36,558 nucleotides of DNA. Source: a virus (lineage: Duplodnaviria > Heunggongvirae > Uroviricota > Caudoviricetes). Of this stretch, positions 2,568 to 36,151 are shown piece after piece (position 1 is the stretch's first letter; each line of letters begins with the position of its first letter). The notes beneath the pieces are model-generated. The model was not told where the DNA came from. It saw nothing but the letters and a program-made list of their open reading frames with translations, and searched no databases. The position numbers were made by a program, and so were the translations under genes. Location of the stretch: positions 1 through 36,558 of the IMG/VR virus record IMGVR_UViG_2778261416_000006; one strand, 5' to 3'.

Positions 2568-2573
2568 TCTTAT

Positions 2574-10023: not shown

Positions 10024-10189
10024 GTTTGGGACCCTCATGTTTTGGACCCTTTGTGTTGGGTCCCAAAAAGGGTGCCATAACGAGTAGATTCTAGCAATTC
10101 TCGGTAGACTACTATAGACGTAAAAAAGCCCGCAAGGCTGGTTCCATGCGGGCTTGATAGACTTCACTGAACTTCAATATATCAAAAAT

Positions 10190-11324: not shown

Positions 11325-11894
11325 ATGAACCAGTGCACACAGTGGTTGGGGTATCATGGCACCAGTGTTTTATGTGCTAATTCAATCATTAATACAAATT
11401 TTAATGTCAGTAGACAAGAAAATGATTGGCTTGGTACCGGAGCCTATTTTTTCATTGAGTCGCCGGGATTGTTGGCCCCAGAAGAAAAAGCGGCTCAATG
11501 GGCTAACATTAGGGCTAGTAATGCGAGACCTAACTATACTAATCTAGCAGTGTTAGAAGCTACCATTGAAGTTGAGCAGTATCTTGACTTAGACAATGAT
11601 GAGCACATAGCCGCTCTCAACAAAGTGAGAGAGGTTTACATGGAAATCATGAAGTCTGAGGGTAAGAAACCAACTGGTAACAGATTGTTTGACAAATGCT
11701 GTTTTTGTAACTATGTAATGCATGAGCATGGTATTGACGCCCTGATACGTAAAGAGTATATCAAAACTACAAGAGAGGAGCTTGATTATGGTTTTGAAGG
11801 GGGAGTTCCTAACTGCAGAGTCTTATGCGTTAAAGACCCTAAAGCGAGTGTTAAGTCCATACGATTCGCGGTCGAGAGAAGGAGAGTACGATGA
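11325..11894 (+). CDS. putative ADP-ribosyltransferase-fold (H-Y-E class, PARP/DarT-like) toxin candidate
   Basis: YHGTSVLCANSIINTNF followed by WLGTGAYFF resembles the HG[ST]...GxGxYF signature of H-Y-E ADP-ribosyltransferases; assignment by eye only. AT-rich; stop overlaps next start (ATGA). Confidence 0.45.
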   Translation: MNQCTQWLGYHGTSVLCANSIINTNFNVSRQENDWLGTGAYFFIESPGLLAPEEKAAQWANIRASNARPNYTNLAVLEATIEVEQYLDLDNDEHIAALNKVREVYMEIMKSEGKKPTGNRLFDKCCFCNYVMHEHGIDALIRKEYIKTTREELDYGFEGGVPNCRVLCVKDPKASVKSIRFAVERRRVR

Positions 11895-12256
11895 ACATCA
11901 ATTTATGGCTCGAAAAGACCTTGGACTCTATAAGGTCAACTGATCCGAAAGCTCTCATGGTGAGGATGGAGCGGTATGGATTGATTGAAGATGATGTTAA
12001 TAAAAATAAGGAAATGTCTCATTCTGGTTATGAATATACAGTTTGTGAGGATCTTCCTAGAGAGGTTCCTTTTGCGTCCTATTTTTTCATTGATAACGCT
12101 TCGTATCATGAAGAATCTATAAATGCTTTATCCGTGCAGTTGACTTTCACAACAGCGCCGCGTGAAGCGGCGTTTTCATTGGCTTCACGTCCAGTGTTTT
12201 ATACATCAGAGATTGCTTGTGGAAATTCTCTGGATCATATTGCCCAGGCTGCTTAA
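11891..12256 (+). CDS. hypothetical protein, candidate antitoxin or adaptor
   Basis: ATG 11891 preceded by AAGGAG; coupled to flanking genes. No motif recognised. Confidence 0.45.
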   Translation: MNINLWLEKTLDSIRSTDPKALMVRMERYGLIEDDVNKNKEMSHSGYEYTVCEDLPREVPFASYFFIDNASYHEESINALSVQLTFTTAPREAAFSLASRPVFYTSEIACGNSLDHIAQAA

Positions 12257-12257
12257 T

Positions 12258-12644
12258 ATGAAATTTCAATTAAATAAGAATCAAATAGAAAAGTTAAGTA
12301 TTGAACATTTTATAAATGAATCATCTATTAAAAACAGTTTTTCATTTTCACATACATGCAAGTATGATGAAGAAAAGAATAATGAGTTTATCATTTCTTT
12401 TAAATTTGAACTTACATCTGACAATGGTTTTAAACTTATTTTTACGCATAATTTCTTTTTTGAATGCGATGAACCAATTACAGAAGAGTTTTTACAGTCA
12501 CATTACACATCAGTGAACGCTCCTGCTATTGCCTATCCTTATGTAAGAGCATTTGTGGCAACATTACTTTTAAACGCAGGCTTAGAGTCTGTTTTATTGC
12601 CTGCTGTTAATTTTGTTGAGCATGCTAAATCGCAAGATAAATGA
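12258..12644 (+). CDS. SecB-like chaperone
   Basis: C-terminal AIAYPYVRAFVATLLLNAGLESVLLPAVNF parallels SecB [30 protein letters not shown]. ATG sits 1 nt after upstream stop; the track ORF 12162-12644 is treated as an N-terminal over-extension. Confidence 0.6.
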   Translation: MKFQLNKNQIEKLSIEHFINESSIKNSFSFSHTCKYDEEKNNEFIISFKFELTSDNGFKLIFTHNFFFECDEPITEEFLQSHYTSVNAPAIAYPYVRAFVATLLLNAGLESVLLPAVNFVEHAKSQDK

Positions 12645-12649
12645 TTAAA

Positions 12650-12674
12650 ATGAGAGCAAATAAATTGCTCTCAT
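12650..12674. terminator. bidirectional hairpin terminator between convergent genes
   Basis: 9-bp stem atgagagca / tgctctcat with 7-nt loop, flanked by A-run upstream and T-rich downstream; overlaps integrase stop codon. Confidence 0.5.
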
Positions 12675-13840
12675 TTATACATGATATCATTTATGGTATT
12701 TTCGTTATCGTACTCTTTTAAATATCTTCCATAATGCCTAAATAGCATTTCTGGTCCTTTATGTCCCATTTGTCCAGCAAGCCAAAATAGGTTCGCCCCT
12801 TGACTGATATGGCGAGTAGCGAATGTGTGTCTCGTTTGATATGGATTACGGTATCTGATTCCTGCTTTTCTCAATATTGGCACCCATGCTTTTTTCCTAA
12901 TTGCATCAGCACTTGCCCAGGGTTTATTGGTCTTTGGATCTTCAAAGACAGTAGCATTCTTTATGAATGTAAATGGCTTCTGGTTTATCAACGCCAACAT
13001 TGCTTCTTCAGTCAGTTCAACTTTACGGGTACCGGCTTTTGTCTTTGTTCCTTTGATAACTCCGACAACACTTGCGCTCTGAACATGGGCTGTTTTTCCA
13101 ACAAAGTCGATATCATGCCATCGTAGGGCACATAATTCAGAACTACGCAGGCCTGTATGTATGGCGAACCGGAACAGATTTTCCCATTGTTTGTTTCCGG
13201 CTGCTGCTAGTAATGCATCAACTTCTGCTGGTGATAGCGGATCAACTAAGTAGCTGCTTTCTGCTTCTGACTTATCACTTTGGTAGCGCGAAGCTGTTAC
13301 TAACGATACGGGGTTAATTTGAAGTACCCCATCGGTCACGGCTTCATCAAGTGCTGACCGCAGGAAAGATAACTGGTTGCGAATGGTTTTTAAGGTCGTT
13401 TTCTGGCTTTGAATCCACGCTTTCAGGGTTGCTGGTGTTAATTCACTTGCAGGGCAAATGTGAAGTGAGGCTAACGCACTACGGCATTTTTTATAACCAC
13501 CGATCGTGGATGGTGAAAGTTTCCTCGTTTCGCAGATTTCAAGATATTCGTCTAGGTACATTTTTACCGTTTTGCCAGCGGCAGCATTACCAAAAATTTT
13601 CAAACGAGCAGAACGGGGAAAATATTCTGCATAAATGAATGTTCCCCTTTCGATCTTATTATGGATTTCGCCGAGTGTACGCTCGGCGTATTTAATGTTC
13701 TTTGGTGTTACTTCCAGATTGGAAAGCGGCTCACGACATCTAACTCCTTTGTAGGTGAAAGTTATATTGATCGTTTCTCCTTGGCGGTGTTTCCTGATTG
13801 TTACGCCGCGCGGTAGTTTGAGCAGTTTTGTCTGGCCCAT
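12671..13840 (-). CDS. lambda-type tyrosine integrase
   Basis: C-terminal catalytic region RHTFATRHISQG (HxxR) and MLFRHYGRYL (Tyr); N-terminal arm-binding-like region. ATG at 13840. Confidence 0.85.
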   Translation of the reverse strand: MGQTKLLKLPRGVTIRKHRQGETINITFTYKGVRCREPLSNLEVTPKNIKYAERTLGEIHNKIERGTFIYAEYFPRSARLKIFGNAAAGKTVKMYLDEYLEICETRKLSPSTIGGYKKCRSALASLHICPASELTPATLKAWIQSQKTTLKTIRNQLSFLRSALDEAVTDGVLQINPVSLVTASRYQSDKSEAESSYLVDPLSPAEVDALLAAAGNKQWENLFRFAIHTGLRSSELCALRWHDIDFVGKTAHVQSASVVGVIKGTKTKAGTRKVELTEEAMLALINQKPFTFIKNATVFEDPKTNKPWASADAIRKKAWVPILRKAGIRYRNPYQTRHTFATRHISQGANLFWLAGQMGHKGPEMLFRHYGRYLKEYDNENTINDIMYK

Positions 13841-21791: not shown

Positions 21792-22634
21792 ATGAATAAT
21801 CTGATGGTCATTGATGGTATTGAAGTTCGTCGTGATGCTTATGGACGTTACAGCCTGAACGATCTGCATCGCGCAGCAGTAGCATCTGGTGCAAATGCCA
21901 GAACCAAGGAGCCGGGAAAGTTTCTTTCCAGCCAACAGATTACTGAGCTGGTTCAGGAATTGATCGATACCCAAAATCTGGGTATCGGTTCATTCAATGA
22001 AACTACCCAAAATTTGGGTAGTAAACCTGTCAGTAAAATAGAAGGGCGGAATGGCGGAACATATGTCTGTAAGGAACTGGTGTATGCCTATGCAATGTGG
22101 ATCAGCCCGTCATTCCATCTGAAGGTGATCCGCACTTTCGACATGGTAACCAGCGCACCGGAAAAATTATCCGGGCAGGCTGCTGACAAGATGCAGGCTG
22201 GCGTGATTCTGCTGGACTTTATGCGCCGGGAGTTAAATCTGTCTAACTCATCAGTGCTTGGTGCCTGTCAGAAACTTCAGGAGGCTGTTGGCTTACCGAA
22301 TCTGGCACCGCGCTATGCCATTGATGCTCCTGCTGATGCACACGATGGCTCAAGTCGCCCGACACTGTCACTGAGTGCACTGCTGAAACAGTATGGTATA
22401 CGCCTGACGGCTAATCAGGCATATCACCAGATGGTGAAACTGGGGATCGTCGAGCAGCGCGAACGATACAGTCGTACCGCGATTAACAACATCAAAAAAT
22501 TCTGGTCGCTGACAGCGAAAGGTTGCATGTTCGGCAAGAACATCACCAGTCCCGCAAATCCGCGCGAGACGCAGCCGCATTTCTTCGAATCCCGATTCCC
22601 TGAGCTGTTAAAGCTGCTCGATACCGTTCATTGA
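21792..22634 (+). CDS. KilA-N domain protein (possible antirepressor)
   Basis: N-terminal MVIDGIEVRRDAYGRYSLNDLHRAA is KilA-N-like; AGGAG upstream. Confidence 0.5.
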   Translation: MNNLMVIDGIEVRRDAYGRYSLNDLHRAAVASGANARTKEPGKFLSSQQITELVQELIDTQNLGIGSFNETTQNLGSKPVSKIEGRNGGTYVCKELVYAYAMWISPSFHLKVIRTFDMVTSAPEKLSGQAADKMQAGVILLDFMRRELNLSNSSVLGACQKLQEAVGLPNLAPRYAIDAPADAHDGSSRPTLSLSALLKQYGIRLTANQAYHQMVKLGIVEQRERYSRTAINNIKKFWSLTAKGCMFGKNITSPANPRETQPHFFESRFPELLKLLDTVH

Positions 22635-22641
22635 GGTGACC

Positions 22642-23631
22642 GTGAGAGCACTACTGACCCCTGAAATAGCCCCGCGTATGGGGATCGTATTGTTCAGGCC
22701 AGGTTCAGAGCTGATGCCCCTGTTTATGCAGGGGCGTGTCCTGCTGGAGCCTGAGCCGGAGCGTTATTCATCTTTCGCCAGTGGTGCCGTTCCGGCGGCA
22801 TCACAACCGCTGGCGGATGATCCTGCCGTTCGGGCCGTGTTCCGCAATGAGGCAGTGATCCGTCGTGCTGGTGGCGTGGAATGTCTTGAAAGCTGGTTAC
22901 TTCGTGAAAAAGGCTGCCAGTGGCCTCATTCCGACTGGCACAGCGAGAACATGACCACAATGCGACACGCTCCGGGTGCAATCCGTCTGTGCTGGCACTG
23001 CGATAACCAGCTGCGCGATCAGTTCACGGAACGGCTGGAATCAATGGCAACGGATAACTGTGCCCGCTGGGTGTTGTCTGTTGTGCGTCGGGATCTCGGT
23101 TTTGATGACAGTCACGTTGTGACAATGCCGGAACTGTGCTGGTGGCTGATTCGTAATGACCTGGCGGATGCCTTACCGGAAAGTGCAGCCCGTAAGGCAC
23201 TGAGATTACCGAAGCCTGTTGTGCCGTCTGCTACCCGGGAAAGTGACCTTGTGCCTTCGGTTCCTGCCACCAGCATCATCCAGGATAAGGCGAAAAAGGT
23301 GCTGGCGCTGAAAGTGGATCCGGAGTCGCCGGAGTCTTTTATGTTACGCCCAAAACGTCGCCGCTGGGTTAATGAAAAGTACACGCGCTGGGTTAAGACA
23401 CAGCCGTGTGCATGTTGTGGAAAGCCCTCTGATGATCCCCACCACCTGATAGGTCACGGTCAGGGTGGAATGGGAACAAAAGCGCATGACCTTTTTGTGT
23501 TGCCTTTGTGCAGAAAGCATCACGACGAGCTGCATGCGGATACCGTGGCATTTGAAGAGAAGTATGGCTCTCAGCTGGAGCTGATATTTCGTTTTATCGA
23601 TCGTGCGCTGGCAACTGGCGTACTGGGCTGA
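22642..23631 (+). CDS. DUF968/HNH-like phage protein (YdfU-like)
   Basis: C-terminal CACCGKPSDDPHHLIGHG ... LPLCRKHHDELHAD is Cys/His-rich and HNH-like. Start is uncertain: GTG 22642 with GAGG upstream, or track GTG 22636. Confidence 0.5.
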   Translation: MRALLTPEIAPRMGIVLFRPGSELMPLFMQGRVLLEPEPERYSSFASGAVPAASQPLADDPAVRAVFRNEAVIRRAGGVECLESWLLREKGCQWPHSDWHSENMTTMRHAPGAIRLCWHCDNQLRDQFTERLESMATDNCARWVLSVVRRDLGFDDSHVVTMPELCWWLIRNDLADALPESAARKALRLPKPVVPSATRESDLVPSVPATSIIQDKAKKVLALKVDPESPESFMLRPKRRRWVNEKYTRWVKTQPCACCGKPSDDPHHLIGHGQGGMGTKAHDLFVLPLCRKHHDELHADTVAFEEKYGSQLELIFRFIDRALATGVLG

Positions 23632-23648
23632 TGTTGTGGAGAAAGTTG

Positions 23649-23990
23649 ATGCGTGACATGTATGAAGTTTTGGACCGCTGGGGAGCATGGGCTGCAGCAG
23701 ATAACAGTAGTGTGGACTGGCAGCCGATAGCAGCAGGCTTCAAGGGGCTTTTACCTCATGGTAAAAAAACACGTCTCCAGTGTGATGATGATGAAGGGAT
23801 CATGATAGACGGTTGTGTCGCACGGTTACGTAAATATAAACAAGAAGAATATGAGCTAATAATTGCCCACTTTGTTATTGGTATTTCATTACGCGCCATT
23901 GCGAAGAAGCGTAAGTGTTCTGATGGGACAATTAGAAAAGATATGCAAACAGCATTAGGTTTTGTTAGTGGTGTGCTATCAATGCTATGA
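23649..23990 (+). CDS. late-gene antiterminator Q (QuuD-like)
   Basis: MRDMYEVLDRWGAWAA ... WQPIAAGFKGLL ... QCDDDEGIMIDGCVARL resembles DLP12 QuuD as recalled. Start at ATG 23649 with GGAG upstream. Confidence 0.75.
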   Translation: MRDMYEVLDRWGAWAAADNSSVDWQPIAAGFKGLLPHGKKTRLQCDDDEGIMIDGCVARLRKYKQEEYELIIAHFVIGISLRAIAKKRKCSDGTIRKDMQTALGFVSGVLSML

Positions 23991-23994
23991 TTAT

Positions 23995-24014
23995 AAGAGG
24001 CCTTAGGGCCTCTT
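23995..24014. terminator. hairpin between convergent Q and cargo genes
   Basis: 8-bp stem aagaggcc / ggcctctt with 4-nt loop; no clean T-tract. Confidence 0.4.
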
Positions 24015-24016
24015 TA

Positions 24017-24760
24017 CTAAATTACTTGGATGATGAAAGAAACAATCAATGTTGCTAAACCACCAATAGCAGATACTTTAAATTCCGAACCACGAAATAC
24101 CATCTTCCCATTGACCTTTATATTATTTGCAATGAATGGTGATATTCCAACGGCCGCACTCATGAAATATAAAGAAGAAATCATTTTCTTTTGAAACTCA
24201 TTCAAGTCTGGCATTAACAGTGTAATTGATAAAAAAATACAAAAACTTAAAAATCCAATAATAGCAGTGACAATTAATTTCCAATTCATTGGGGTACCTA
24301 TAGTAAATCCATCGATTGGCAATTTTCGAGACTCAAATTCCGCAATAATAGCGGTGTAAATATCTTTTGATGAGTACTTTTTAATGATTCTTTGGATGTT
24401 TGATAGACCATCTTTGCTATACAATACAATATTGTCTGGATCAATTTTTAGGTGTTTAATGTTTGCCACCATCATGTCGTAGTATTCTAAATAAGTTTCC
24501 AGAACTGCTCGACAGTCTCCAGCTAACGAAATGGCGAATGTCTTATTGTCATCCAGTTTACATAAATCTACTTTTTGAACTAACTTAACAGCGGTATTAA
24601 AATATTTTGAAGCATGCTGCTGAACTTCATGTAGGTCAGCAAGGTTTGATATACCGCCATTACGCACGTATGGCTGAATACCACGTAAAAATCTTTCCTT
24701 TGCAGAAGTCAGCTCCGACGTTACTTCGTCGGGGCTGATCTGAAACACATCATTATTCAT
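24017..24760 (-). CDS. membrane protein with two C-terminal transmembrane segments (cargo gene)
   Basis: Hydrophobic stretches WKLIVTAIIGFLSFCIFLSITLLMP and VSAIGGLATLIVSFIIQVI; AT-rich; opposite strand to phage late genes; start overlaps upstream gene stop. Confidence 0.5.
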   Translation of the reverse strand: MNNDVFQISPDEVTSELTSAKERFLRGIQPYVRNGGISNLADLHEVQQHASKYFNTAVKLVQKVDLCKLDDNKTFAISLAGDCRAVLETYLEYYDMMVANIKHLKIDPDNIVLYSKDGLSNIQRIIKKYSSKDIYTAIIAEFESRKLPIDGFTIGTPMNWKLIVTAIIGFLSFCIFLSITLLMPDLNEFQKKMISSLYFMSAAVGISPFIANNIKVNGKMVFRGSEFKVSAIGGLATLIVSFIIQVI

Positions 24761-25020
24761 TTTTGTTTTGGTGCCAGCATTCTTAATGCAGTGTTAAGAT
24801 CAGAGTTGTCCACACTTTCAGTGATTAAGAATTGGGTATTGGGAACATGACGGCTGATAATGCCTTGGAGCATGCTACGACTTATAACTTTACCACTTTG
24901 AAGCGCGGAGTTAATGTCATTTTGTATCAAAGTGATTTCACGCTCGGTACAGGGGAAACCCCACCGAGTAACATTTGCATATTCACCAATTTTTTTCTTA
25001 AATTCTAGGTAGTTACTCAT
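24757..25020 (-). CDS. small soluble protein (87 aa), first gene of the cargo cassette
   Basis: ATG-initiated, AT-rich, coupled to the membrane-protein gene. Confidence 0.45.
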   Translation of the reverse strand: MSNYLEFKKKIGEYANVTRWGFPCTEREITLIQNDINSALQSGKVISRSMLQGIISRHVPNTQFLITESVDNSDLNTALRMLAPKQK

Positions 25021-25138
25021 TGCAGTTCTCCTTGTTTGTAACCACGTTAATCATATCAAAAAGCAAAATAATAAAAAACTAACGCGTACGCAAAAAGTAT
25101 TGTATCGTGTTAAGAGTGGTTACTTCGCCACGCAGCTT
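25021..25138. promoter_or_regulatory. putative late promoter (pR'-like) region, also the divergent promoter region of the cargo cassette
   Basis: Inference from position between Q and the lysis genes; TTGTAA/TTGTAT -35-like hexamers present but no promoter could be defined precisely. Confidence 0.3.
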
Positions 25139-25162
25139 AAACCCGTCGATGAGCGGGTTTTG
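25139..25162 (+). terminator. tR'-like hairpin terminator
   Basis: aaacccg tcgatgag cgggttt followed by tg and T-rich sequence, upstream of the holin gene. Confidence 0.4.
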
Positions 25163-25311
25163 TCGTCTCTGGCCCGGCTGTTAGTTGGGCTTGGCCTATC
25201 CCGCAGTTATCCATTTGCTCGGCTTCTTTGACGTTTCCGCTTCTGATTTGCGGTTCCTGATATTCCCTCAATTTGCACCTGCTGTATCAGCAAGGTGAGA
25301 GATAACTATAA

Positions 25312-25638
25312 ATGCCTCATAACCCAAATACCTGGCTGGAGTTGCTCCAGAGCTGGTGGCGTGGAGACACACCGCTGGGCGCAGTGATTATGTCGATCGT
25401 TATGGCTGGTTTGCGCATCGCCTATTTTGGCGGTGGTGGTGGCTGGAAGCGAAAAACGCTCGAGATTTTGCTATGTGGCGCTCTGACGCTGACCTTTGCA
25501 TCCGCTCTTGAGTATGTCGGATGGCCTAAATCGCTTTCTGTTGCCATTGGTGGTGGCGTGGGGCTGATCGGTGTCGATGCTATTCGTGGGGCTGCAATGC
25601 GAGTAATCGGTAACAAATTTGGTAGCTCGAAGGAGTAA
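25312..25638 (+). CDS. holin (lambda S-like)
   Basis: 108 aa with hydrophobic segments and Gly-rich stretch, directly upstream of the endolysin; resembles lambda S. Confidence 0.65.
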   Translation: MPHNPNTWLELLQSWWRGDTPLGAVIMSIVMAGLRIAYFGGGGGWKRKTLEILLCGALTLTFASALEYVGWPKSLSVAIGGGVGLIGVDAIRGAAMRVIGNKFGSSKE

Positions 25639-25641
25639 TTT

Positions 25642-26118
25642 ATGCAGGCACTAAATTCCCAGCGTAAAGCTTTCCTGGATATGGTGGCATGGTCAGAAGG
25701 AACGGATAACGGGCGACAGCCGACACGTAACCACGGTTATGATGTTATTGTTGGTGGCGAACTGTTCACTGATTACTCCGATCACCCTCGCAAACTTGTC
25801 ACGCTAAACCCCAAACTCAAATCAACAGCTGCCGGACGTTACCAGCTTCTTTCACGCTGGTGGGATGCTTACCGTAAACAGCTTGGCCTGAAAGATTTTT
25901 CTCCAGAAAGCCAGGACGCTGTAGCTCTGCAGCAGATTAAAGAGCGTGGTGCTTTACCGATGATTGACCGCGGCAGTATTCGTCAGGCAATCGACCGTTG
26001 CAGCAATATCTGGGCGTCGTTACCTGGTGCAGGTTACGGTCAGTATGAACATAAAATCGGTGACCTGATTGCCCGATTTAAAAAAGCTGGTGGGGTAGTA
26101 AATGAAGCTGAGATATAA
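25642..26118 (+). CDS. R: endolysin, lambda R-type lytic transglycosylase
   Basis: Near-identity over long stretches with lambda R as recalled (NSQRKAFLDM..AWSEGTDNGRQ.TRNHGYDVIVGGELFTDYSDHPRKLVTLNPKLKST.AGRYQLLSRWWDAYRKQLGLKDFSP); AGGAG 6 nt upstream. Confidence 0.9.
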   Translation: MQALNSQRKAFLDMVAWSEGTDNGRQPTRNHGYDVIVGGELFTDYSDHPRKLVTLNPKLKSTAAGRYQLLSRWWDAYRKQLGLKDFSPESQDAVALQQIKERGALPMIDRGSIRQAIDRCSNIWASLPGAGYGQYEHKIGDLIARFKKAGGVVNEAEI

Positions 26119-26620
26119 GCTGGTTATTGTTGCCTTCGTTGTTAGCGTCATTGGTTCCTTCATCTGGTCTGCTGGGCATTACTACAGCAAATATCAGCAC
26201 GAAAAGGAGCGTGCTGATGAGGCTGTACGAAATGCTGAATCAGCAACTGCCATTACCCGTAACGTTCTGCAATCACTGCAAATCATCAATACAGTTATAG
26301 AGGCTAACCAGCATGCAAAACAGCAGATCGCACTGGAGTCACAGAGAACCCAGGAAGATATCAAAGTGGCTGTTGCGGATGATGATTGTGCTTCACGTCA
26401 TGTGCCTGCTGCCGCTGCTGACCGGTTGCGGAAGTACGCGAACAGTTTACGTACCGATTCCGGCGGTAATCAAGTAGGGTTATTGAGTGGTAAAGTTTGT
26501 GCTGAATGTAGGAGAGAATATGAAGAAAATGTTTATATTGTTGTTGGCTGCAGGACTGCCATTAAACTCCTTTGCGAAGCCAGTAACGGAAAAGCAGCTT
26601 GCTACATACTTTATAGATAA
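26102..26620 (+). CDS. Rz-like i-spanin with foreign C-terminus, probably disrupted
   Basis: N-terminal transmembrane segment and Rz-like body up to about codon 122; from about 26468 the frame runs into AT-rich DNA encoding unrelated Cys-rich sequence. Confidence 0.45.
   Translation: MKLRYKLVIVAFVVSVIGSFIWSAGHYYSKYQHEKERADEAVRNAESATAITRNVLQSLQIINTVIEANQHAKQQIALESQRTQEDIKVAVADDDCASRHVPAAAADRLRKYANSLRTDSGGNQVGLLSGKVCAECRREYEENVYIVVGCRTAIKLLCEASNGKAACYILYR
26382..26477 (+). pseudogene. Rz1-like o-spanin remnant (lipoprotein signal then premature stop)
   Basis: Embedded +1-frame ORF MIVLHVMCLLPLLTGCGSTRTVYVPIPAVIK with lipobox LTGC but only 16 residues after the Cys, ending at the AT-rich junction. 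Confidence 0.4.
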
Positions 26621-27008
26621 CGTTAAAACTTCAGCAGATAAGAATATAGATCTAGATGTAGGGGGAATAAATAGACTGTCTGTAATATGCCCAGCAAAGT
26701 CGGCAAGTGGAACTCTTTTAATAAAAAAAGCATCCTACGAGTTTAATAAAGGCATTGGTGTTTTTGATTTTGAAAATAACTCACAATCTGCACCATTGGC
26801 TTTTATTGTACCAATTAGTGAGGATGAAAATAACTTTGACTCGGAAATTATTGGTTTCTCTTTTGCATTTAAAATGCCAAGAGGGCAATTCTTTGTTGAT
26901 GTTACGAAATCAGGGAAGGTAAAGGCTGGCGTAAATATTAGTGGTGAAAGCGGAATTACTTATTCATCATGTAGAATAGATACTCATAATGTTGATTATG
27001 ATCTTTAA
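26520..27008 (+). CDS. secreted protein with Sec signal peptide (cargo gene)
   Basis: MKKMFILLLAAGLPLNSFA signal-like N-terminus; AGGAGAG upstream of ATG 26520; AT-rich; own terminator downstream. Confidence 0.55.
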   Translation: MKKMFILLLAAGLPLNSFAKPVTEKQLATYFIDNVKTSADKNIDLDVGGINRLSVICPAKSASGTLLIKKASYEFNKGIGVFDFENNSQSAPLAFIVPISEDENNFDSEIIGFSFAFKMPRGQFFVDVTKSGKVKAGVNISGESGITYSSCRIDTHNVDYDL

Positions 27009-27023
27009 TTTTATTACCTAATA

Positions 27024-27053
27024 AAAAACCGCGTTTACACGCGGTTTTTATTT
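27024..27053 (+). terminator. rho-independent terminator
   Basis: aaaaccgcg tttaca cgcggtttt followed by tatttg. Confidence 0.6.
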
Positions 27054-27064
27054 GAGGTGACGCC

Positions 27065-28438
27065 ATGGATTTTTCTCATATTTCTTCGTACCTATCCTCT
27101 GATTCTCGAAGTGGCTGGCGTGAAAAGCTACTTGAAGCATCATTTCGAGGTGTGCCGTTTAAGGTTGAAGAAGAAAGTGCGGGAACCGGTCGCCGTGTGG
27201 AAACACATGAATACCCGAACCGCGACAAGCCATATACCGAAGATCTGGGAAAAGTCACTTTCCGCCCGTCCATCACAGCTTATGTGGTGGGCGATGACTG
27301 CTTTGACCAGCGCGATCGCCTGATTGACGCGCTGAATAAACCTGGTCCCGGCACGCTTGTCCATCCGACATACGGTGAGATGAAAGTCTGTGTTGACGGG
27401 GAAGTTCGGGTCAGCACATCGAAAAGTGAAGGGCGTATTGTCCGCTTTGACCTGAAGTTTGTCGAAGCAGGAGAACTCTCTTACCCCACATCAGGTGCGG
27501 CGACGGCGCAGACGCTGATGTCATCCTGTTCTGCACTGGATGACTGCATCAGTGACAGCTTCAGCGGTTTCAGTATCGATGGTGTGGCGGATTTCGTGCA
27601 GAACGACGTTATCGGTAATGCCAGCATAATGCTGGGGTATGTTTCTGATGCGATGAAAGTGGTGGATTCTGCCGTATCGGATGCCGCCAGGCTGTTGCAG
27701 GGGGATATCTCGGTACTTCTGCCGCCGCCATCGTCAGGCAAAAATTTCGTTGAGCAGGTGCAGAAAATGTGGCGTACCGGGAAACGCCTTTATGGTAACG
27801 CCAGCGACCTGGTCATCATGATCAAAACGCTTTCCGGTGTCAGCCTCGGCAGCGATCTGCAACCGCGCGGCGTCTGGAAAACGGACAGTAAAACCACCGC
27901 CACGGCGACGCAGCAGCGTAACGTGGTTGCCAGCACACTTCGTACGACCGCAATCAGCGAAGCGGCGTATGCCGTCACCCGATTGCCTGCGCCAACAACT
28001 TCCGCGGTGATGCAGAATTCCGCAGTGGGGCAGGCAACAACACCCGCGCAGAGCACTGGCTGGCCTTCCGTCACGCATCCGGCACTGAACAATGCACCGG
28101 CGGTGAAAAACACGGTTGACCTGCCGACGTGGGAAGAACTGACTGACATTCGCGACACACTGAATACGGCAATTGATAAGGAGTTGTCCCGTACAACCAG
28201 CGATGCGCTGTTTCTGGCGCTGCGCCGGGTGAAAGAAGATCTGAATGCGGATATCAACACGCGCCTTGAACAGTCTGCACGGATCATTCAGCGCACACCG
28301 GATGAGGTTTTACCCGCGCTGGTGCTGGCGGCGACCTGGTTTGATAACGCGGCGCGTGACGCGGACATTATCCGGCGTAATGCCATTACGCATCCCGGCT
28401 TTGTGCCGGTGATCCCTCTGAAGGTGCCAGTGCAATGA
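27065..28438 (+). CDS. Mu N-like DNA circulation / tail protein
   Basis: Size, position ahead of baseplate genes and sequence character resemble Mu gpN-family proteins in e14/Mu-like tails; GAGGTGA upstream. Confidence 0.6.
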   Translation: MDFSHISSYLSSDSRSGWREKLLEASFRGVPFKVEEESAGTGRRVETHEYPNRDKPYTEDLGKVTFRPSITAYVVGDDCFDQRDRLIDALNKPGPGTLVHPTYGEMKVCVDGEVRVSTSKSEGRIVRFDLKFVEAGELSYPTSGAATAQTLMSSCSALDDCISDSFSGFSIDGVADFVQNDVIGNASIMLGYVSDAMKVVDSAVSDAARLLQGDISVLLPPPSSGKNFVEQVQKMWRTGKRLYGNASDLVIMIKTLSGVSLGSDLQPRGVWKTDSKTTATATQQRNVVASTLRTTAISEAAYAVTRLPAPTTSAVMQNSAVGQATTPAQSTGWPSVTHPALNNAPAVKNTVDLPTWEELTDIRDTLNTAIDKELSRTTSDALFLALRRVKEDLNADINTRLEQSARIIQRTPDEVLPALVLAATWFDNAARDADIIRRNAITHPGFVPVIPLKVPVQ

Positions 28439-29514
28439 ACGACAATGTCACGCTACGGGTAAATGGCCGGGAGTGGAATGGCTGGACATCGGTGCGCATC
28501 GGTGCCGGTATTGAACGGCTGGCGCGGGATTTCAGTGTGGAGATCACCCGCCAGTGGCCGGGAGATGAGGGTATTACCACGCTTCAGCCGCGCATTAAAA
28601 ACGGTTCAAAAGTGGAGGTGCTGATTGGTGATGAGCTGGTGATCACCGGCTGGGTGGAGGCGACGCCCGTTCGTTACGATTCCCGTTCGGTCAGCACCGG
28701 TATTGCCGGACGCAGTCTGACCGCTGACCTGATTGACTGTGCAGCCGAACCGACACAGTTTAACGGACGATCGCTGGTACAGATTGCGCAGGCGCTTGCT
28801 GCGCCTTTCAGCATTGAGGTGGTGAACAACGGTGCGCCGTCGGGTGTTATTCCTGATGTTCAGCCTGATCACGGTGAAACGGTGATTGAGGTAATCAACA
28901 AAATACTCGGTCAGCAGCAGGCACTGGCTTACGACGACCCGCACGGCAGGCTGGTGATTGGCGGTATTGGCTCAACGCGGGCACATACTGCGCTGGTACT
29001 CGGGGAAAACATCCTTTCCTGCGATACGGAGAAGAGTATCCGGGAGCGGTTTTCTGTTTACCAGGTGGCGGGGCAGCGTGCCGGAAACGACGATGATTTC
29101 GGTGAGGCCACCACCACCGCGCTGCGGGCCCGCACAGAGGACGCATTTATTGCCCGTTACCGTCCGATGTATATCAGGCAGACAGGGCAGGCTACGGGGG
29201 CAGGCTGTATTGCCCGTGCGGACTTTGAAGCCCGACAACGGGCGGCGCGGACGGATGAAACCACCTATGTGGTGCAGGGCTGGCGACAGGGTAACGGTAC
29301 GCTGTGGCAGCCCAACCAGCGGGTGATTGTCTTTGATCCGGTCTGTGGTTTCGACAATACCGAACTGCTTGTTTCGGAAGTCACGTTTACTCAGGACCAG
29401 AACGGCACCCTGACGGAAATCCGTGTCGGCCCGCCTGATGCTTATCTGCCTGAACCCGAAGCCCCCGGCGCGCGGAAAAAGAAAAAAGCCAGAGTACAGG
29501 AGGACCCGTTCTGA
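28435..29514 (+). CDS. Mu P-like baseplate hub protein
   Basis: Synteny (N, P, V, W, J) and recalled similarity; start overlaps upstream stop. Confidence 0.6.
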   Translation: MNDNVTLRVNGREWNGWTSVRIGAGIERLARDFSVEITRQWPGDEGITTLQPRIKNGSKVEVLIGDELVITGWVEATPVRYDSRSVSTGIAGRSLTADLIDCAAEPTQFNGRSLVQIAQALAAPFSIEVVNNGAPSGVIPDVQPDHGETVIEVINKILGQQQALAYDDPHGRLVIGGIGSTRAHTALVLGENILSCDTEKSIRERFSVYQVAGQRAGNDDDFGEATTTALRARTEDAFIARYRPMYIRQTGQATGAGCIARADFEARQRAARTDETTYVVQGWRQGNGTLWQPNQRVIVFDPVCGFDNTELLVSEVTFTQDQNGTLTEIRVGPPDAYLPEPEAPGARKKKKARVQEDPF

Positions 29515-30062
29515 TGAGGACGATTGAAGCCATGCAGCGACAACTCCTCGGCCTGATTGGGCGGGCCGTGGTGAAAAGCATCAGTGCCGCCACGAAATGT
29601 CAGACCGTGGATGTGTCCCTGATTGCCGGTGAACCCAAAGCCGGGGTTGAACATCTTGAACCCTACGGTTTTACCGCAAGGGCAAACAGCGGTGCGGAAG
29701 CGGTGGTGTTGTTTCCGGATGGCGACCGTTCTCATGCGGTGGTTGTTACGGTGTCGGACCGGCGCTACCGCCTGAAAGGGCTGCAGACGGGTGAGGTGGC
29801 GGTCTATGACGATCAGGGGCAGTCCGTGACGCTGACCCGGGAGGGGATCGTGGTGGACGGTGCAGGTAAAACGATCACGTTTCGTAATTCACCTAAAGCA
29901 CGTTTTGAAATGGACCTGGAAGTGACAGGACAGGTGAAAGACCTGTGCGACTCCGGCGGCACCACCATGTCAGCGATGCGGCTTGCCTATAACGGGCATC
30001 GTCACAGAGAGAACGGTCAGGGCAGTAACACCGACAAACCTGATAAAGCGATGGAGGCATGA
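29514..30062 (+). CDS. baseplate spike/assembly protein V-like (Mu gp45-like)
   Basis: Synteny; TGATG-coupled start. Confidence 0.55.
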   Translation: MRTIEAMQRQLLGLIGRAVVKSISAATKCQTVDVSLIAGEPKAGVEHLEPYGFTARANSGAEAVVLFPDGDRSHAVVVTVSDRRYRLKGLQTGEVAVYDDQGQSVTLTREGIVVDGAGKTITFRNSPKARFEMDLEVTGQVKDLCDSGGTTMSAMRLAYNGHRHRENGQGSNTDKPDKAMEA

Positions 30063-30487
30063 TGGAACTGTGGCTGACGGTGAACGGTAAACGCACCTGC
30101 GCCAGCGCACCGATGGATCCGCTGACCCGTGCCGTGGTGATTTCCCTGTTCACCTGGCGGCGGGCTGAACCTGATGACAATGCCGACGTCCCGATGGGAT
30201 GGTGGGGGGATACCTGGCCTGCGGTACAGAATGACCGTTACGGCTCCCGACTGTGGCTGCTTCAGCGCAGCAAACTGACCAATCAGCTGGTGCAGACGGT
30301 AAGGGGATATATCCGCGAATGCCTGCAATGGATGATTGATGACGGCGTGGTGTCCCGTATTGATCTGGATATCCGCCGCACCGGGATTAATGAGCTGGGG
30401 AACAGTATCACCCTCTGGCGTCGTGACGGACCGGTAATGATTTCTTTTGATGATCTGTGGAGTGCGATAACGCATGGCGGACAGTGA
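30059..30487 (+). CDS. Mu gp46-like baseplate protein
   Basis: Synteny and size (142 aa). Confidence 0.55.
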   Translation: MMELWLTVNGKRTCASAPMDPLTRAVVISLFTWRRAEPDDNADVPMGWWGDTWPAVQNDRYGSRLWLLQRSKLTNQLVQTVRGYIRECLQWMIDDGVVSRIDLDIRRTGINELGNSITLWRRDGPVMISFDDLWSAITHGGQ

Positions 30488-31532
30488 ATTTCAGCGCCCG
30501 ACGCTGGCAGAAAATATCAGTATGCTCCGTAACGATTTATTCGCCAGGCTGGACGTCAGCGACACGCTCCGGCGCATGGATGAAGACGTGCGGGCAAAGG
30601 TGTATGCGGCGGCGCTGCATACGGTTTACGGGTACATCGATTATCTGGCAATGAACATGCTGCCTGACCTGTGCGATGAGTTCTGGCTGGCGCGACATGC
30701 TGCGATGAAACGGTGTCCGCGCAAGGGGGCCACGGCTGCCAGCGGGTATATGCGCTGGGAAGGTGTCAGCGATGGCCTGAAGGTGACTGCCGGGAGCGTG
30801 ATTCAGCGCGATGACCTGGTTCAGTACACGGCAACTGCCGATGCAACCAGCTCCGGTGGTGTCCTGCGCGTGCCGATCGCCTGCTCAAGTGCAGGCGCGG
30901 TCGGTAACGCTGACGACGGTACGTCATTAATCCTGGTCACGCCGGTGAATGGTCTGCCGTCTTCCGGTGTGGCTGACACCCTGACAGGCGGATTTGATAC
31001 TGAAGAGCTGGAAACGTGGCGCGCCCGCGTCATTGAGCGGTATTACTGGACGCCGCAGGGCGGGGCTGACGGGGACTATGTCGTCTGGGCTAAAGAAGTG
31101 CCCGGCATTACCCGCGCATGGACATACCGACACTGGATGGGAACGGGGACTGTCGGTGTGATGATTGCCAGCAGTGACCTGATTAATCCCATTCCGGAAG
31201 AGTCAACGGAAACGGCGGCAAGACAACATATCGGGCCACTGGCCCCGGTGGCAGGCTCTGATTTGTATGTATTCAGGCCGGTGGCGCATAAAGTGGATTT
31301 TCATATCCGCGTGACGCCGGACACACCGGAAATACGGGCTGCCATCACCGCCGAGTTGCGTTCGTTCCTGCTGCGTGATGGTTATCCGCAGGGAGAACTG
31401 AAGGTGTCACGTATCAGTGAAGCGATTTCCGGTGCGAACGGGGAATACAGCCATCAGTTGCTTGCCCCGGCGGACAATATCTCCATTGCAAAAAATGAGC
31501 TGGCAGTTCTGGGGACGATTTCATGGACGTGA
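30474..31532 (+). CDS. baseplate J-like protein (JayE-like)
   Basis: Synteny with e14 jayE and size (352 aa). Confidence 0.65.
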
Positions 31533-32107
31533 CAAACGATGATTATATCCGTCTGTTGTCGGCACTGTTGCCGCCCGGTCCGGCGTGGTCAGTCAGCGAT
31601 CCGGCGATTGCCGGTGCGGCACCGTCATTAACCCGCGTTCATCAGCGTGCGGATGCCCTGATGCGGGAGCTGGATCCGCGCACCACCACTGAACTGATAA
31701 ACCGCTGGGAGCGTCTGTGCGGTCTGCCGGATGAATGTATTCCGGCAGGGACACAGACCCTTCGCCAGCGTCAGCAACGGCTGGATGCGAAGGTTAATCT
31801 GGCGGGCGGCATCAATGAGGATTTTTACCTTGCACAGCTTGCTGCCCTGGGCAGACCAGACGCCACTATCACGCGATACGATAAAAGCACGTTCACCAGC
31901 TCATCGGCCTGTACTGACGCGGTGAATGCGCCGGAATGGCGGTATTACTGGCAGGTCAACATGCCAGCCGCCACCAACACCACCTGGATGACATGTGGCG
32001 ATCCCTGTGATTCCGCACTTCGTATCTGGGGCGACACCGTTGTCGAGTGCGTGCTTAACAAACTCTGCCCTTCGCATACCTACGTAATTTTTAAATATCC
32101 GGAGTAA
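31523..32107 (+). CDS. Mu gp48-like tail protein (YmfQ-like)
   Basis: Position immediately before the tail-fibre gene, as ymfQ in e14. Confidence 0.55.
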
Positions 32108-32110
32108 TCC

Positions 32111-32695
32111 ATGCATCGTATAGACACGAAAACCGCGCAGAAGGATAAGTTCGGCGCGGGTAAGAACGGTTTTACCCGTGGTAACCCCCAGACCGGCACA
32201 CCTGCCACCGATCTGGATGATGACTACTTTGACATGTTGCAGGAAGAACTTTGCAGCGTGGTGGAGGCCTCCGGTGCCAGCCTGGAGAAAGGGCAGCATG
32301 ATCAGCTGCTTACCGCACTTCGTGCGCTGCTGTTAAGCCGCAAGAATCCGTTTGGCGATATCAAATCGGATGGCACGGTGAAAACGGCTCTCGAAAACCT
32401 TGGTTTGGGAGAAGGTGCTAACTGGGTTATGTTACCTGGAGGAATGATAATTCAGCGTGTTTATCTTGGATTTCCTGTCGGCACCAATGTAAGACACATA
32501 ACTTTCCCCCGGTCGTTTACAACAACGAACTATTCCATCTCAATTAACTGGAATGATATCGGTACTGTAACAACTGAAACACAATCGCCAGCAAATGTGG
32601 CGGTTGTTCATCAAACAAAATCATTAACAGGGGCCAGCATCTGGCAGGCAGGTCCCGGGGGATTTAATGTGGACATTATAGCGGTGGGGTATTGA
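32111..32695 (+). CDS. side tail fibre protein, constant N-terminus plus invertible C-terminal segment
   Basis: N-terminus [60 protein letters not shown] matches e14-type tail fibres as recalled; crossover site inside the gene. Confidence 0.75.
32388..32413. repeat. left crossover site of the invertible tail-fibre segment
   Basis: 26-mer ctctcgaaaaccttggtttgggagaa is the inverted repeat (20 of 26 identical, 14-bp perfect core) of the site at 34224-34249. Confidence 0.5.
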
Positions 32696-33702: not shown

Positions 33703-34277
33703 GCAGCCCTCACAATGTAATTAAATGAAATATTACGTGGGCGTGTCTCTGCTGCACCGACAATACTGGTACTCAACCCCGTTGCCGTTCGTTTGTTATT
33801 TTTATTTCCTTCAATCAGACAGTTGTAATCATCATTACCAATTAACGAATTGGTGGCATCAATACTGTCCGGGGACAAGGCATTAGTTGTGGAACTTAAA
33901 GTCAGCATCTCGTCTGAACTTGGAAGATTTTTTAATGGTGTTTCATTGCGTGAAATACCCGCGTAAAAAAAGGACTCATGCCTGTGAGCTTCAAAAGAGT
34001 CATTCTGAAGACTTAGCAAGGCTCGCCCCGCATCCACTCCACGTCCATCATCCCAGCCACGAATAAATTCACCGCGTAAATCAGGCAATTTATTGGTCGG
34101 GTAAGCCTTTGCCAGTTCCGGGTATTCTTCAGCAGAAAAAGCCGCACCATTGCATTTCAGCCAGCCTGTTGGCGGAGTGGCTGAAGGCCACGGAACAGGC
34201 ACCCCAACCGGTAATGCAGAGCCTTCTCCCAAACCAACGTTTATGAAAATGTAGAAATAACGAGCAAATGGCATCAT
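33699..34277 (-). CDS. alternative tail fibre C-terminal segment (expressed only after inversion)
   Basis: Begins at the GLGEG crossover junction, contains a tail-collar-like region (LPDLRGEFIRGWDDGRGVDAGR ... NISFNYIVRA), and has no promoter-proximal constant part of its own. Confidence 0.55.
   Translation of the reverse strand: MMPFARYFYIFINVGLGEGSALPVGVPVPWPSATPPTGWLKCNGAAFSAEEYPELAKAYPTNKLPDLRGEFIRGWDDGRGVDAGRALLSLQNDSFEAHRHESFFYAGISRNETPLKNLPSSDEMLTLSSTTNALSPDSIDATNSLIGNDDYNCLIEGNKNNKRTATGLSTSIVGAAETRPRNISFNYIVRAA
34224..34249. repeat. right crossover site of the invertible segment, adjacent to pin
   Basis: ttctcccaaaccaacgtttatgaaaa; resembles hix/gix/cix sites (TTCTTGAAAACCAAGGTTTTTGATAA) at 20 of 26 positions. 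Confidence 0.5.
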
Positions 34278-34303
34278 TCCTGCTTTTGTCAGGGAGATCT
34301 ACC

Positions 34304-34666
34304 ATGCTTATTGGCTATGTACGTGTGTCAACAAATGACCAGAACACAGATCTACAACGTAATGCGCTGAACTGTGCAGGATGCGAGCTGATTTTTGAAG
34401 ACAAGATAAGCGGTACAAAGTCCGAAAGGCCGGGACTGAAAAAACTGCTCAGGACATTATCGGCAGGTGATACGCTGGTGGTCTGGAAACTGGATCGACT
34501 GAGGCGCAGTATGCGGCATCTTGTCGTGCTGGTGGAGGAACTGCGCGAAAGAGGCATCAACTTTTGCAATCTGACGGATTCAATTGATACACAGTATCTT
34601 GTTAACACCAACACATGGCTGCAGGAGGGATATTATCGGTACCCGATTTCAGGATACAGCGCCTGA
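34304..34666 (+). pseudogene. pin: truncated DNA invertase (Pin/Hin/Gin family)
   Basis: MLIGYVRVSTNDQNTDLQRNALN ... VVWKLDRLRRSMRHLVVLVEELRERGINF matches the catalytic domain of Pin; similarity ends near residue 96 (about 34592) and the C-terminal HTH is absent. GGGAGA upstream of ATG. Confidence 0.7.
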
Positions 34667-34725
34667 TTAGACTAAAGAGGGGCTATATTGTAGAGTTTGC
34701 TAAAGTTTTTTATAGGGTTAAGCAA

Positions 34726-35796
34726 ATGACAGTCAGGAACTACACTAATTTAAATTTAGATCGGACAACTATTGAGGCTACGTCTAGGGCATTTATTGAA
34801 AATAAAAACTATTCCGTCCATTCAATTGGACCAATGCCTGGTGCAAGAGCAGGACTTCGGGTTGTGTTTGCTAAACCAGGAGAAGCTTTGGCAACTGTTA
34901 ACATTTTCTATAATAACGGAGGGACGTCTACAGTCCAGTATCAAACAGGAGCTAATCATAATCTTGGAAAAGAGTTGGCTGATGATCTCTATGAAACCAT
35001 CAATCCTGCAGAATTTGAACAGGTAAATATGGTGTTACAAGGGTTCGTTGAAGCGAACGTTTTATCTGTACTTCAGCTCTCAGCAGAGCAGCCACATATA
35101 CAATTTTACGAATACTTACGGAACACTCATACAACGGTGTGGAAAATTCATTCGCCAGAATTTCAGGATGAGTTGACAGTTAGTCTGCATCACAGAAATG
35201 GAACACTACAAATACAAGGGCGTCCATTGTCATGTTATAGAGTGTTTATATTCAACTTGTCAGAGCTACTCGATTTACAAGGACTGGAAAAAGTTCTCAT
35301 TCGTCAGGATGATGGCAAAGCGTATATAGTTCAGAAAGAAGTTGCTCGCTCACATCTAGAGTGTGAAATGGGGGATGCGTACCCACTATTGCATAAGAAT
35401 GTTGAAAAATTGCTCGTTTCTGGGCTGTGTGTTAAACTCGCCGCCCCCGATTTACCCGATTACTGTATGTTGTTGTATCCTGAATTACGTTCAATTGAGG
35501 GAGTACTTAAATCAACAATGTACCGATATGGCATGCCAATCACGCAGGATGGTTTCGGGCCTTATTTTGATAAAATTGGGAGTGAATTTATTCTGAAACA
35601 ACAATTTGGATGCAATTTATCGTCAGCTAAGGTTAAGACCATTAATGATGCCTATACTTTCTTTAACAGAGAACGTCATGGCCTGTTTCATATGGAGATA
35701 GTTGTCGACACAAGCCGTATGGTTTCTGACATGGCACGACTGATGACTAAGGCCAGACAGGCATGGGGAATTATTAAGGATTTGTATATTGTTTGA
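34726..35796 (+). CDS. rnlA: RnlA-like toxin (endoribonuclease of the RnlA-RnlB system)
   Basis: 357 aa from ATG 34726; N-terminus MTVRNYTNLNLD and internal segments such as EKLLVSGLCVKLAAPDLPDYCMLLYPELR and WGIIKDLYIV match E. coli RnlA as recalled. AT-rich. Confidence 0.65.
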   Translation: MTVRNYTNLNLDRTTIEATSRAFIENKNYSVHSIGPMPGARAGLRVVFAKPGEALATVNIFYNNGGTSTVQYQTGANHNLGKELADDLYETINPAEFEQVNMVLQGFVEANVLSVLQLSAEQPHIQFYEYLRNTHTTVWKIHSPEFQDELTVSLHHRNGTLQIQGRPLSCYRVFIFNLSELLDLQGLEKVLIRQDDGKAYIVQKEVARSHLECEMGDAYPLLHKNVEKLLVSGLCVKLAAPDLPDYCMLLYPELRSIEGVLKSTMYRYGMPITQDGFGPYFDKIGSEFILKQQFGCNLSSAKVKTINDAYTFFNRERHGLFHMEIVVDTSRMVSDMARLMTKARQAWGIIKDLYIV

Positions 35797-36151
35797 AATA
35801 ACAGGTGTTAACGTCTCAGGGGCTCTCATTGCCGTCGTTATGGCGACTGGCTACGAGAACCCCTTGACTTCAGTTCACGAAATCGAGAAGAGGCTTTCTG
35901 TTATACTGGGCAATTCACAGGCTACAGGTGAGGTTTTGTTTGACCTTTTGTGTTCTAATGGTCCAGAGTGGAATCGCTTTGTTTCGCTGGAAATAAGGTG
36001 TGGCAGTATTTTGCTGGATACTGCCAAAATTGTGGATGAGCAAGAAATTCCAGCGCAGATCTTGAGACATCAGAGAGATGTATTACGTAACCACCCTGAG
36101 TACGTAGAAGACTCTGTGTTAACACCAGATGATGTTCTTTGTATTCTCTAG
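35789..36151 (+). CDS. rnlB: RnlB-like antitoxin
   Basis: FEITGVNVSGAL ... LFDLLCSNGPEWNRF ... LRNHPEY resembles RnlB as recalled; start appears to be TTG overlapping the rnlA stop. Confidence 0.6.
   Translation: MFEITGVNVSGALIAVVMATGYENPLTSVHEIEKRLSVILGNSQATGEVLFDLLCSNGPEWNRFVSLEIRCGSILLDTAKIVDEQEIPAQILRHQRDVLRNHPEYVEDSVLTPDDVLCIL

Follow-up and report, generated by a model that had tools for sequence, protein, structure and literature searches.

A probable internal deletion joins truncated spanin genes to a tail-module cargo gene in an SfV-like Escherichia coli prophage

The window (the whole stretch of viral DNA analysed here, 36,558 nt) contains an SfV-like Escherichia coli prophage with a lambdoid early region and a Mu-like contractile tail, in which the lysis cassette runs directly into an AT-rich gene for a putatively exported protein. 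With a probability that we put at roughly 90%, one internal illegitimate deletion explains this arrangement, as judged from alignments with intact relatives. Specifically, a single event of approximately 12.3 kb, in an SfV-like prophage that already carried the AT-rich gene (referred to as the cargo gene), would have cut the 3′ ends of both spanin genes together with 16 complete packaging, head and tail genes. The same event would have brought the lysis cassette next to the cargo gene, formerly located between the tape-measure and DNA-circularization genes. The cargo gene would then predate the deletion, and its present position behind Rz would be a by-product.

Results

Layout of the lysis cassette and its surroundings

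The window was 100% identical to contig NOSF01000026.1 of draft assembly GCA_002521955.1. Around the junction it showed the following features:

25312..25638, + strand: holin of the lambda S family, intact (Pfam PF05106, E 3e-25)
25642..26118, + strand: lambda R-like endolysin, intact, 158 aa (as long as SfV R and the homologue in CFSAN061769)
26102..26620, + strand: chimeric i-spanin (Rz) ORF (PHROG 214 Rz-like spanin, E 2e-44; DUF2570)
26313..26477, + strand: truncated o-spanin (Rz1/LysC), out of frame within the Rz-like ORF (PHROG 456, partial coverage)
26467..26468, no strand: putative deletion junction, TA common to both parental sides (left homology to 26468, right homology from 26467)
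26469..26519, + strand: 51 bp leader of the cargo gene, formerly the intergenic region between tape-measure and cargo genes (same sequence as behind the tape-measure stop in THO-006 and CFSAN061769)
26520..27008, + strand: AT-rich cargo gene (moron), 162 aa (PHROG 5586, E 2e-82, full length)
27024..27049, + strand: terminator-like hairpin closing the cargo cassette (fold dG –20.4 kcal/mol, z –5.25)
27065..28438, + strand: DNA-circularization (Mu gpN-like) tail gene (Pfam PF07157, E 3e-34)

The holin has the same length as that of the CFSAN061769 prophage, and relatives of the endolysin carry a GH24/GH104 annotation. The DNA-circularization gene is the first surviving gene of the tail module and is followed by baseplate genes up to about position 32107; this tail side shared 98% identity over 5.9 kb with its counterparts in the THO-006 and CFSAN061769 tail modules. 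Genes for packaging, head, sheath, tube or tape measure were found nowhere in the window. GC content amounted to 48.2% in the native part of Rz (26102-26468), 37.3% over positions 26469-26519, 34.6% (GC3 25.8%) in the AT-rich coding sequence (26520-27008) and 55.2% in the next gene (27065-28438).

Mapping of the breakpoint and extent of the missing DNA

The left side of the junction was mapped by megablast of window positions 25300-27400 against phage SfV and E. coli prophages, in which the match stopped at query position 1169 (window 26468) in every case, with an identity of 99.3% to SfV and, over 25300-26468, of 99.8% to CFSAN061769. In a three-way alignment of the window, SfV and CFSAN061769, identity extended as far as ...CCGATTCCGGCGGTA, after which the window continued with ATCAAGTAGGG, and both SfV and the CFSAN061769 prophage with CCGTTGCCAGC. 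For the right side, blastn of window positions 26440-27080 against 5,426 complete E. coli genomes yielded matches that, among all those listed, started at query position 28 (window 26467) and reached the DNA-circularization gene. The only sequence common to both deletion ends was a 2 nt microhomology, TA. An earlier reading of this DNA from sequence only had noticed a switch in composition near 26465-26480, and this switch is indeed there (from approximately 48% to 35% GC), with homology breaking off after position 26468; the alignment with intact Rz and Rz1 homologues, which that reading had proposed as a check, mapped the breakpoint to the same nucleotide.

Both halves of the window occur in CFSAN061769 within one intact prophage, of which Rz (130 aa) and Rz1 are intact. 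The window aligned to it as two collinear blocks, i.e. the lysis side (22056-26468, 98.8% identity) and the tail side (26467-32412, 98.3% identity), and these blocks are 12,315 bp apart in CFSAN061769 (record positions 4564207-4576521 are missing from the window). The left end of the deletion maps within the overlap of Rz and Rz1 (LysC), and the right end 12–14 nt past the stop codon of the tape-measure gene, because of which the cargo gene has kept its 51 bp leader and Shine-Dalgarno sequence. Of the spanin genes, the window misses the 3′ 26 nt of Rz (last 8 codons) and the 3′ 183 nt of Rz1 (last 60 codons). Sixteen complete genes are missing as well, including those for an HNH endonuclease, the small and large terminase, a small ORF, the portal, the prohead protease, the major capsid protein, two connector proteins and a hypothetical protein, followed by the tail genes for the tail terminator, DUF2635, sheath, tube, tail assembly protein (chaperone) and tape measure. 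We infer the exact size of the deletion and its single-step origin from CFSAN061769, which is a reference of 98–99.8% identity and not the direct parent.

The junction showed neither target duplications nor inverted repeats, and beside the cassette no transposase or integrase gene was called. An imperfect 10/12 match (ATTCCGGCGGTA vs ATTCAGGCGATA) was present 14 nt ahead of the right breakpoint, at the tape-measure stop codon of THO-006. A mobile-element signature at the junction was nevertheless rejected, since only TA is shared and the 10/12 match does not coincide with the junction.

Frequency and age of the junction

A junction-spanning match occurred in none (0) of the 5,426 complete E. 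coli genomes, the junction was not found among the GTDB species representative genomes either, and only two recorded contigs contain the fused Rz ORF of 172 aa. Because the genes that survive match those of intact relatives in length and share 98–99.8% identity with them, these comparisons point to a recent, lineage-specific deletion. The prophage belongs to an island array, which adjoins ssrA in strain P13-6. The SfV-like prophage of P13-6 at this same site carries an independent and larger deletion, spanning from Q to the tail fibre, and decay by deletion therefore recurs there.

Truncation of both spanins

The Rz ORF (26102-26620) consists of 122 native residues of the SfV type (26102-26467), followed by 50 foreign residues (123-172) that include five Cys and correspond to an out-of-frame reading of the cargo leader and signal-peptide region. 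Its native part is identical to the CFSAN061769 Rz, and shows one change with regard to the SfV Rz (T15S). It retains the N-terminal hydrophobic segment of an i-spanin (LVIVAFVVSVIGSFIW) as a transmembrane stretch and a periplasmic helical domain homologous to the family, and the PHROG 214 match is confined to residues 3-123. Its C-terminus, however, is incomplete when compared with intact Rz of SfV and CFSAN061769, which is 130 aa long and ends in ...RTDSGGTVASKPDY: the native last eight residues (TVASKPDY) are absent from the window, with 50 unrelated residues in their place. The sequence-only reading had seen the Rz frame continue into foreign, Cys-rich sequence, and rightly so; this Cys-rich tail would be an accidental out-of-frame read.

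The window Rz1 (with internal alternative starts at 26379/26382) retains an o-spanin lipoprotein signal, as its lipobox LLTGC is intact and the stretch LLPLLTGC is identical to that of SfV Rz1. From the lipobox Cys onwards, the frame reads 16 residues and then stops (CGSTRTVYVPIPAVIK, followed by the stop codon), in agreement with what had been noted before; 14 of these residues are native and the last two are IK. Given that the intact mature Rz1 of SfV counts 74 residues, 19% (14/74) has been kept and 81% lost. Correspondingly, the window Rz1 aligned to positions 10-42 of the 102 positions in the PHROG 456 profile, vs positions 2-92 for SfV Rz1. From its sequence, the remaining stub does not appear to provide a periplasmic domain with which an o-spanin could reach its i-spanin partner and bind it. 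The earlier description of Rz1 as embedded in Rz applies to the chimeric ORF, within which it does lie, but not to the intact pair, which is overlapped (SfV Rz1 extends 157 nt beyond the Rz stop).

Both spanin genes are thus truncated, as had been supposed, with intact homologues encoding an Rz of 130 aa and a mature Rz1 of 74 aa. The truncation would have been refuted by full-length genes of a short variant class lacking a compositional breakpoint; instead, full-length homologues and a compositional breakpoint were both found. A naturally short spanin variant was ruled out, as in SfV and CFSAN061769 the identical sequences run on until Rz reaches 130 aa and mature Rz1 74 aa. The PGAP pseudogene flag on the CFSAN061769 Rz proved to be an annotation artefact, its translation giving an intact ORF.

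Expected consequences for lysis and particle formation

In phage lambda, stops at codons 151-152 of the 153 in Rz render lysis defective, as do nonsense mutations in Rz1 up to W46X (of 60 codons), while truncation of Rz1 is tolerated only back to codon 55 (PMC5295617). The SfV spanins have been catalogued, with the i-spanin grouped with that of SfIV and the o-spanin placed in the Mu family (PMC6139136). Extrapolating from lambda genetics to this SfV/Mu-type pair, the spanin complex would be dead and the spanin step of lysis would fail, because the o-spanin keeps 19% of its periplasmic part and the i-spanin lacks its C-terminus. The holin and endolysin genes are intact, and upon induction the inner membrane and cell wall should, judging from these genes, still be breached. 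Moreover, because terminase, portal, capsid, sheath, tube and tape measure are missing, the element would be incapable of packaging DNA, building heads or tail shafts and forming particles. Induction of such a spanin-less and head-less prophage, still equipped with holin and endolysin, would probably kill cells without phage release.

The cargo gene and its native slot

The gene immediately downstream of the junction had been credited with its own Shine-Dalgarno sequence, signal peptide and terminator, and each of these was recovered. The Shine-Dalgarno sequence AGGAG (26510-26514) precedes the ATG at 26520 by five bases. The signal peptide (MKKMFILLLAAGLPLNSFA/KP, the slash marking the predicted cleavage; residues 1-19, 26520-26576) starts with a charged n-region (MKK), followed by a hydrophobic h-region (FILLLAAGLPL, Kyte-Doolittle maximum 2.86) and small residues at –3 and –1 (S-F-A/K), which by this heuristic assignment makes it a Sec signal. 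It ends in ...LNSFA/KP without a Cys, and is thus of the signal-peptidase-I type with no lipobox. The hairpin behind the gene (AAAAACCGCGU-UUAC-ACGCGGUUUUU, 27024-27049) was equalled by 0 of 200 shuffled sequences; a terminator consensus scan did not pick it up, probably since its T-run is paired within the stem. No sigma-70-like promoter for the cargo gene was detected by a crude consensus scan of either the window or the intact THO-006 context.

The cargo gene was present in 112 of the 5,426 complete E. coli genomes (in 101 of them at 95–99.7% identity), which is approximately one tenth of the about 1,097 E. coli genomes with the tail module. In THO-006 and CFSAN061769, the two genomes inspected in full, it sits between the tape-measure and DNA-circularization genes. 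In THO-006 the prophage is complete: upstream it has genes for terminase, portal, protease, capsid, connector, sheath, tube and chaperone proteins, and its cargo protein of 162 aa is annotated as hypothetical. SfV lacks the cargo gene and has 45 bp between its tape-measure and circularization genes. A paralogue of 48% identity fills the same slot, immediately behind the tape-measure gene, on a contig from sequencing run SRR36308047, and the protein of this paralogue is named Shigella flexneri by NCBI. A contig with a distant family member also carried an IncFII RepA replication gene and a gene for a PemK-type toxin. Taken together, the patchy presence at one slot, the deviant composition (34.6% GC vs 48–55% in the flanks) and the terminator of its own are those of a moron, and the cargo gene behaves as such, being optional cargo of the tail module.

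Family and predicted structure of the cargo protein

The cargo protein matched PHROG 5586, a phage protein family without assigned function, over its full profile (E 2.1e-82, residues 1-161 aligned to all 161 profile positions). It had no match in Pfam, NCBIfam or PADLOC; 11 family members yielded no Pfam match at E up to 5, and a profile of the family returned nothing below E 0.2 from the PDB sequences. An exhaustive HMMER search of 1.84 billion proteins revealed 17 family representatives, and vB_EcoM-720R4 is the only deposited phage that encodes the protein. Full-length members carry a signal-peptidase-I-like signal peptide, an equivalent of which is kept in distant members, and two Cys are conserved, one within CPxxSASG close to the N-terminus, the other within xCK close to the C-terminus.

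AlphaFold2 modelling on six near-identical sequences was unusable (pLDDT 48), and distant homologues were added to the alignment for a second run. This run, on the mature 143 residues, yielded a model with pLDDT 88.4 and pTM 0.83, in which an N-terminal helix precedes an eight-stranded antiparallel beta-barrel. Foldseek revealed no significant relatives of this model (nothing with E < 0.03 in the PDB, nothing with E < 0.009 in BFVD). The idea of a PliC/MliC lysozyme inhibitor was not supported, as neither the Pfam MliC domain nor the inhibitory-loop motif was found. Most likely, the cargo gene continues to yield a periplasmic protein that is exported by Sec, disulfide-bonded and of the predicted beta-barrel fold. 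Going by its location and fold class, our guess is that it might act in the periplasm as a binding protein or an inhibitor, to the advantage of the lysogen. It seems rather doubtful that PHROG 5586 constitutes an unrecognised class of periplasmic lysogenic-conversion factors in a dedicated slot of SfV-like tail modules, acting as binders or inhibitors that protect the lysogen against an incoming phage, a lysozyme or a toxin, and kept here by selection, not chance, beside the intact holin and endolysin genes of a prophage that has lost so much else. A rare family of exported beta-barrels with a fixed slot in these tail modules holds a small residual interest.

Discussion

Weighing the alternatives

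The sequence-only reading had explained the junction differently, namely by insertion of the AT-rich secreted-protein gene at a bor-like slot in or after Rz/Rz1, with truncation of the spanins as its cost. It was built on a compositional switch and on truncated spanin ORFs, both of which are real, and cargo behind the spanins does occur in related prophages, such as a DUF2441 gene in THO-006. However, 101 intact-looking prophages have this very gene in their tail modules, flanked identically from 51 bp ahead of it up to and including the DNA-circularization gene. An insertion would moreover leave unexplained why a gene from the middle of the tail operon follows the cargo gene, and why the terminase, head, sheath, tube and tape-measure genes are lost; nor would it fit a junction devoid of target duplications, inverted repeats and an adjoining transposase or integrase gene. 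We therefore regard an insertion as scarcely credible. What survives of the notion that cargo was acquired at the cost of the spanins is the exported-protein cargo of foreign composition; the cargo would predate the deletion, and the loss covers 16 further genes. The supposed gain thus comes down to one large deletion that made the prophage defective. More generally, a compositional break beside truncated genes can mark a deletion that joined distant modules, and intact relatives settle the question.

A misjoin of two parts of an intact prophage in a draft contig seems only marginally less improbable than an insertion. The source (GCA_002521955.1) is indeed a draft assembly, and neither the 5,426 complete E. 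coli genomes nor the GTDB species representatives contain the junction. Such an assembly artefact is unlikely, however, because the 2 nt common to both sides are far too short to cause a k-mer misjoin; the fused ORF is, besides, on record in two contigs, and large deletions arose independently in the same-site prophage of P13-6. Illegitimate recombination between two co-resident SfV-like prophages, one contributing the lysis side and the other the cargo and tail side, deserves somewhat more credit and is still improbable. In its favour, the best matches differ between the two sides (CFSAN061769 at 99.8% on the left, THO-006 at 99.7% over the cargo gene on the right), and E. coli genomes can hold up to three copies of the tail module. 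Yet CFSAN061769 alone covers both sides at 98–99.8% identity within one collinear prophage, and mosaicism among these prophages suffices to account for different best matches. Recombination of this kind and an internal deletion would yield the same junction and the same gene losses.

Comparison with known systems

The cargo gene resembles known morons (lambda bor and lom, and the HK97 morons) in its AT-rich deviant composition, its own terminator, its patchy presence and its exported product; the crude scan detected no sigma-70-like promoter for it. Its likening to bor by position in the sequence-only reading did not hold, since its native slot lies between the tape-measure and DNA-circularization genes and not after the spanins. 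The cargo protein is also unrelated to Bor and is not a lipoprotein, having neither a lipobox nor a match to any Pfam family, that of Bor included. Calycin-like barrels (MoaF-like proteins, avidins, PliC/MliC) differ from the cargo protein as well, with 5–15% identity, no Pfam match and no shared functional motif.

The lysis cassette (S, R, Rz, Rz1) is that of the Shigella/E. coli phage SfV and its E. coli prophage relatives SfIV, SfII and CFSAN061769, to which the holin, the endolysin, codons 1-122 of Rz and the first 52 codons of Rz1 show 99.3–99.8% DNA identity. Unlike in the SfV cassette, the window Rz misses its last 8 residues and has gained a 50 aa nonsense tail, while Rz1 misses 60 of its 74 mature residues. 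The window furthermore lacks the HNH gene, the terminase genes and the intervening DNA, where SfV has its genome-end site.

The event is ordinary prophage decay by internal deletion, a well-known process of which the window offers a strain-specific example. DLP12 and e14 of E. coli K-12 are defective prophages in which a lysis cassette or remnants of an SfV-like tail persist. As is generally known of such cryptic prophages, and as in the window, morphogenesis genes were lost by internal deletion, with regulatory, lysis and some tail genes kept. The end points of the window deletion are unlike those of any complete genome searched, and, in contrast to cryptic prophages, the deletion looks recent, with flanks that are 98–99.8% identical to intact prophages and surviving ORFs that are undamaged.

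Possible variation within and next to the cargo gene

The cargo gene contains an A7 homopolymer at positions 26723-26729 of the window. In frameshifted variants (P0008-P0010) from public short-read assemblies, divergence starts exactly at this A7 tract, and these variants could reflect either sequencing errors or slippage-prone on/off variation. In those E. coli genomes that carry the SfV-like tail module but apparently lack the cargo gene, matches to the downstream DNA-circularization gene start only at its nucleotides 49-76 (compared with window 27065-27140). The cargo cassette may thus have a mosaic boundary that reaches into the 5′ end of this gene.

Other accessory genes of the prophage

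An ORF pair is located on the opposite strand, in the interval from the Q antiterminator gene (23631-23990) to the holin gene:

24017-25020, − strand, two AT-rich ORFs of 247 and 87 aa (35.9% GC)

Their matches are PHROG 5814 and 31842, both of unknown function. Because the closest intact SfV-like prophage, in E. coli CFSAN061769, also carries this pair, it is probably a second moron cassette.

In the CFSAN061769 locus L002, RefSeq/PGAP labels the Rz gene (4803-5198) as an incomplete pseudogene, apparently owing to its overlap with lysC. Since the ORF is intact at 130 aa, we rejected pseudogene status and consider the label an artefact that arises when spanin genes of the overlapped type are annotated.

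In the stretch 34268-36151, the tail-fibre invertase gene encodes only the resolvase N-terminal domain, with a product of 132 aa compared with 187 aa in CFSAN061769. After this shortened gene comes an RnlA/RnlB toxin-antitoxin pair (34615-36151), and this right end of the prophage may have undergone a second rearrangement.

Comparison with the P13-6 prophage

In E. coli P13-6, the same ssrA-linked site (NZ_CP080223.1, 1130004-1180000) harbors an SfV-like prophage with an independent and larger deletion, by which the region just after Q has been fused to a tail-fibre gene that is truncated. Deletional decay is therefore recurrent at this locus.

The NACHT-associated gene (1104-3218) is present in the window as two ORFs of 487 and 214 aa, whereas P13-6 carries a single gene of 701 aa. 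This split form may be a pseudogene that arose by a nonsense mutation or a frameshift; NCTC9100 and MRE162 are among several genomes in which it is 100% identical.

The integrase end of the prophage in the window holds the following set:

11325-12644, three small ORFs between the integrase genes 8794-10167 (− strand) and 12671-13840 (− strand)

The third of these, a SecB-like ORF (PF02556), has a match to the PADLOC model PD-T4-9_C (E 8e-35). P13-6 carries DarT/NADAR in the equivalent slot, suggesting that the integrase end is a variable slot for defence cargo.
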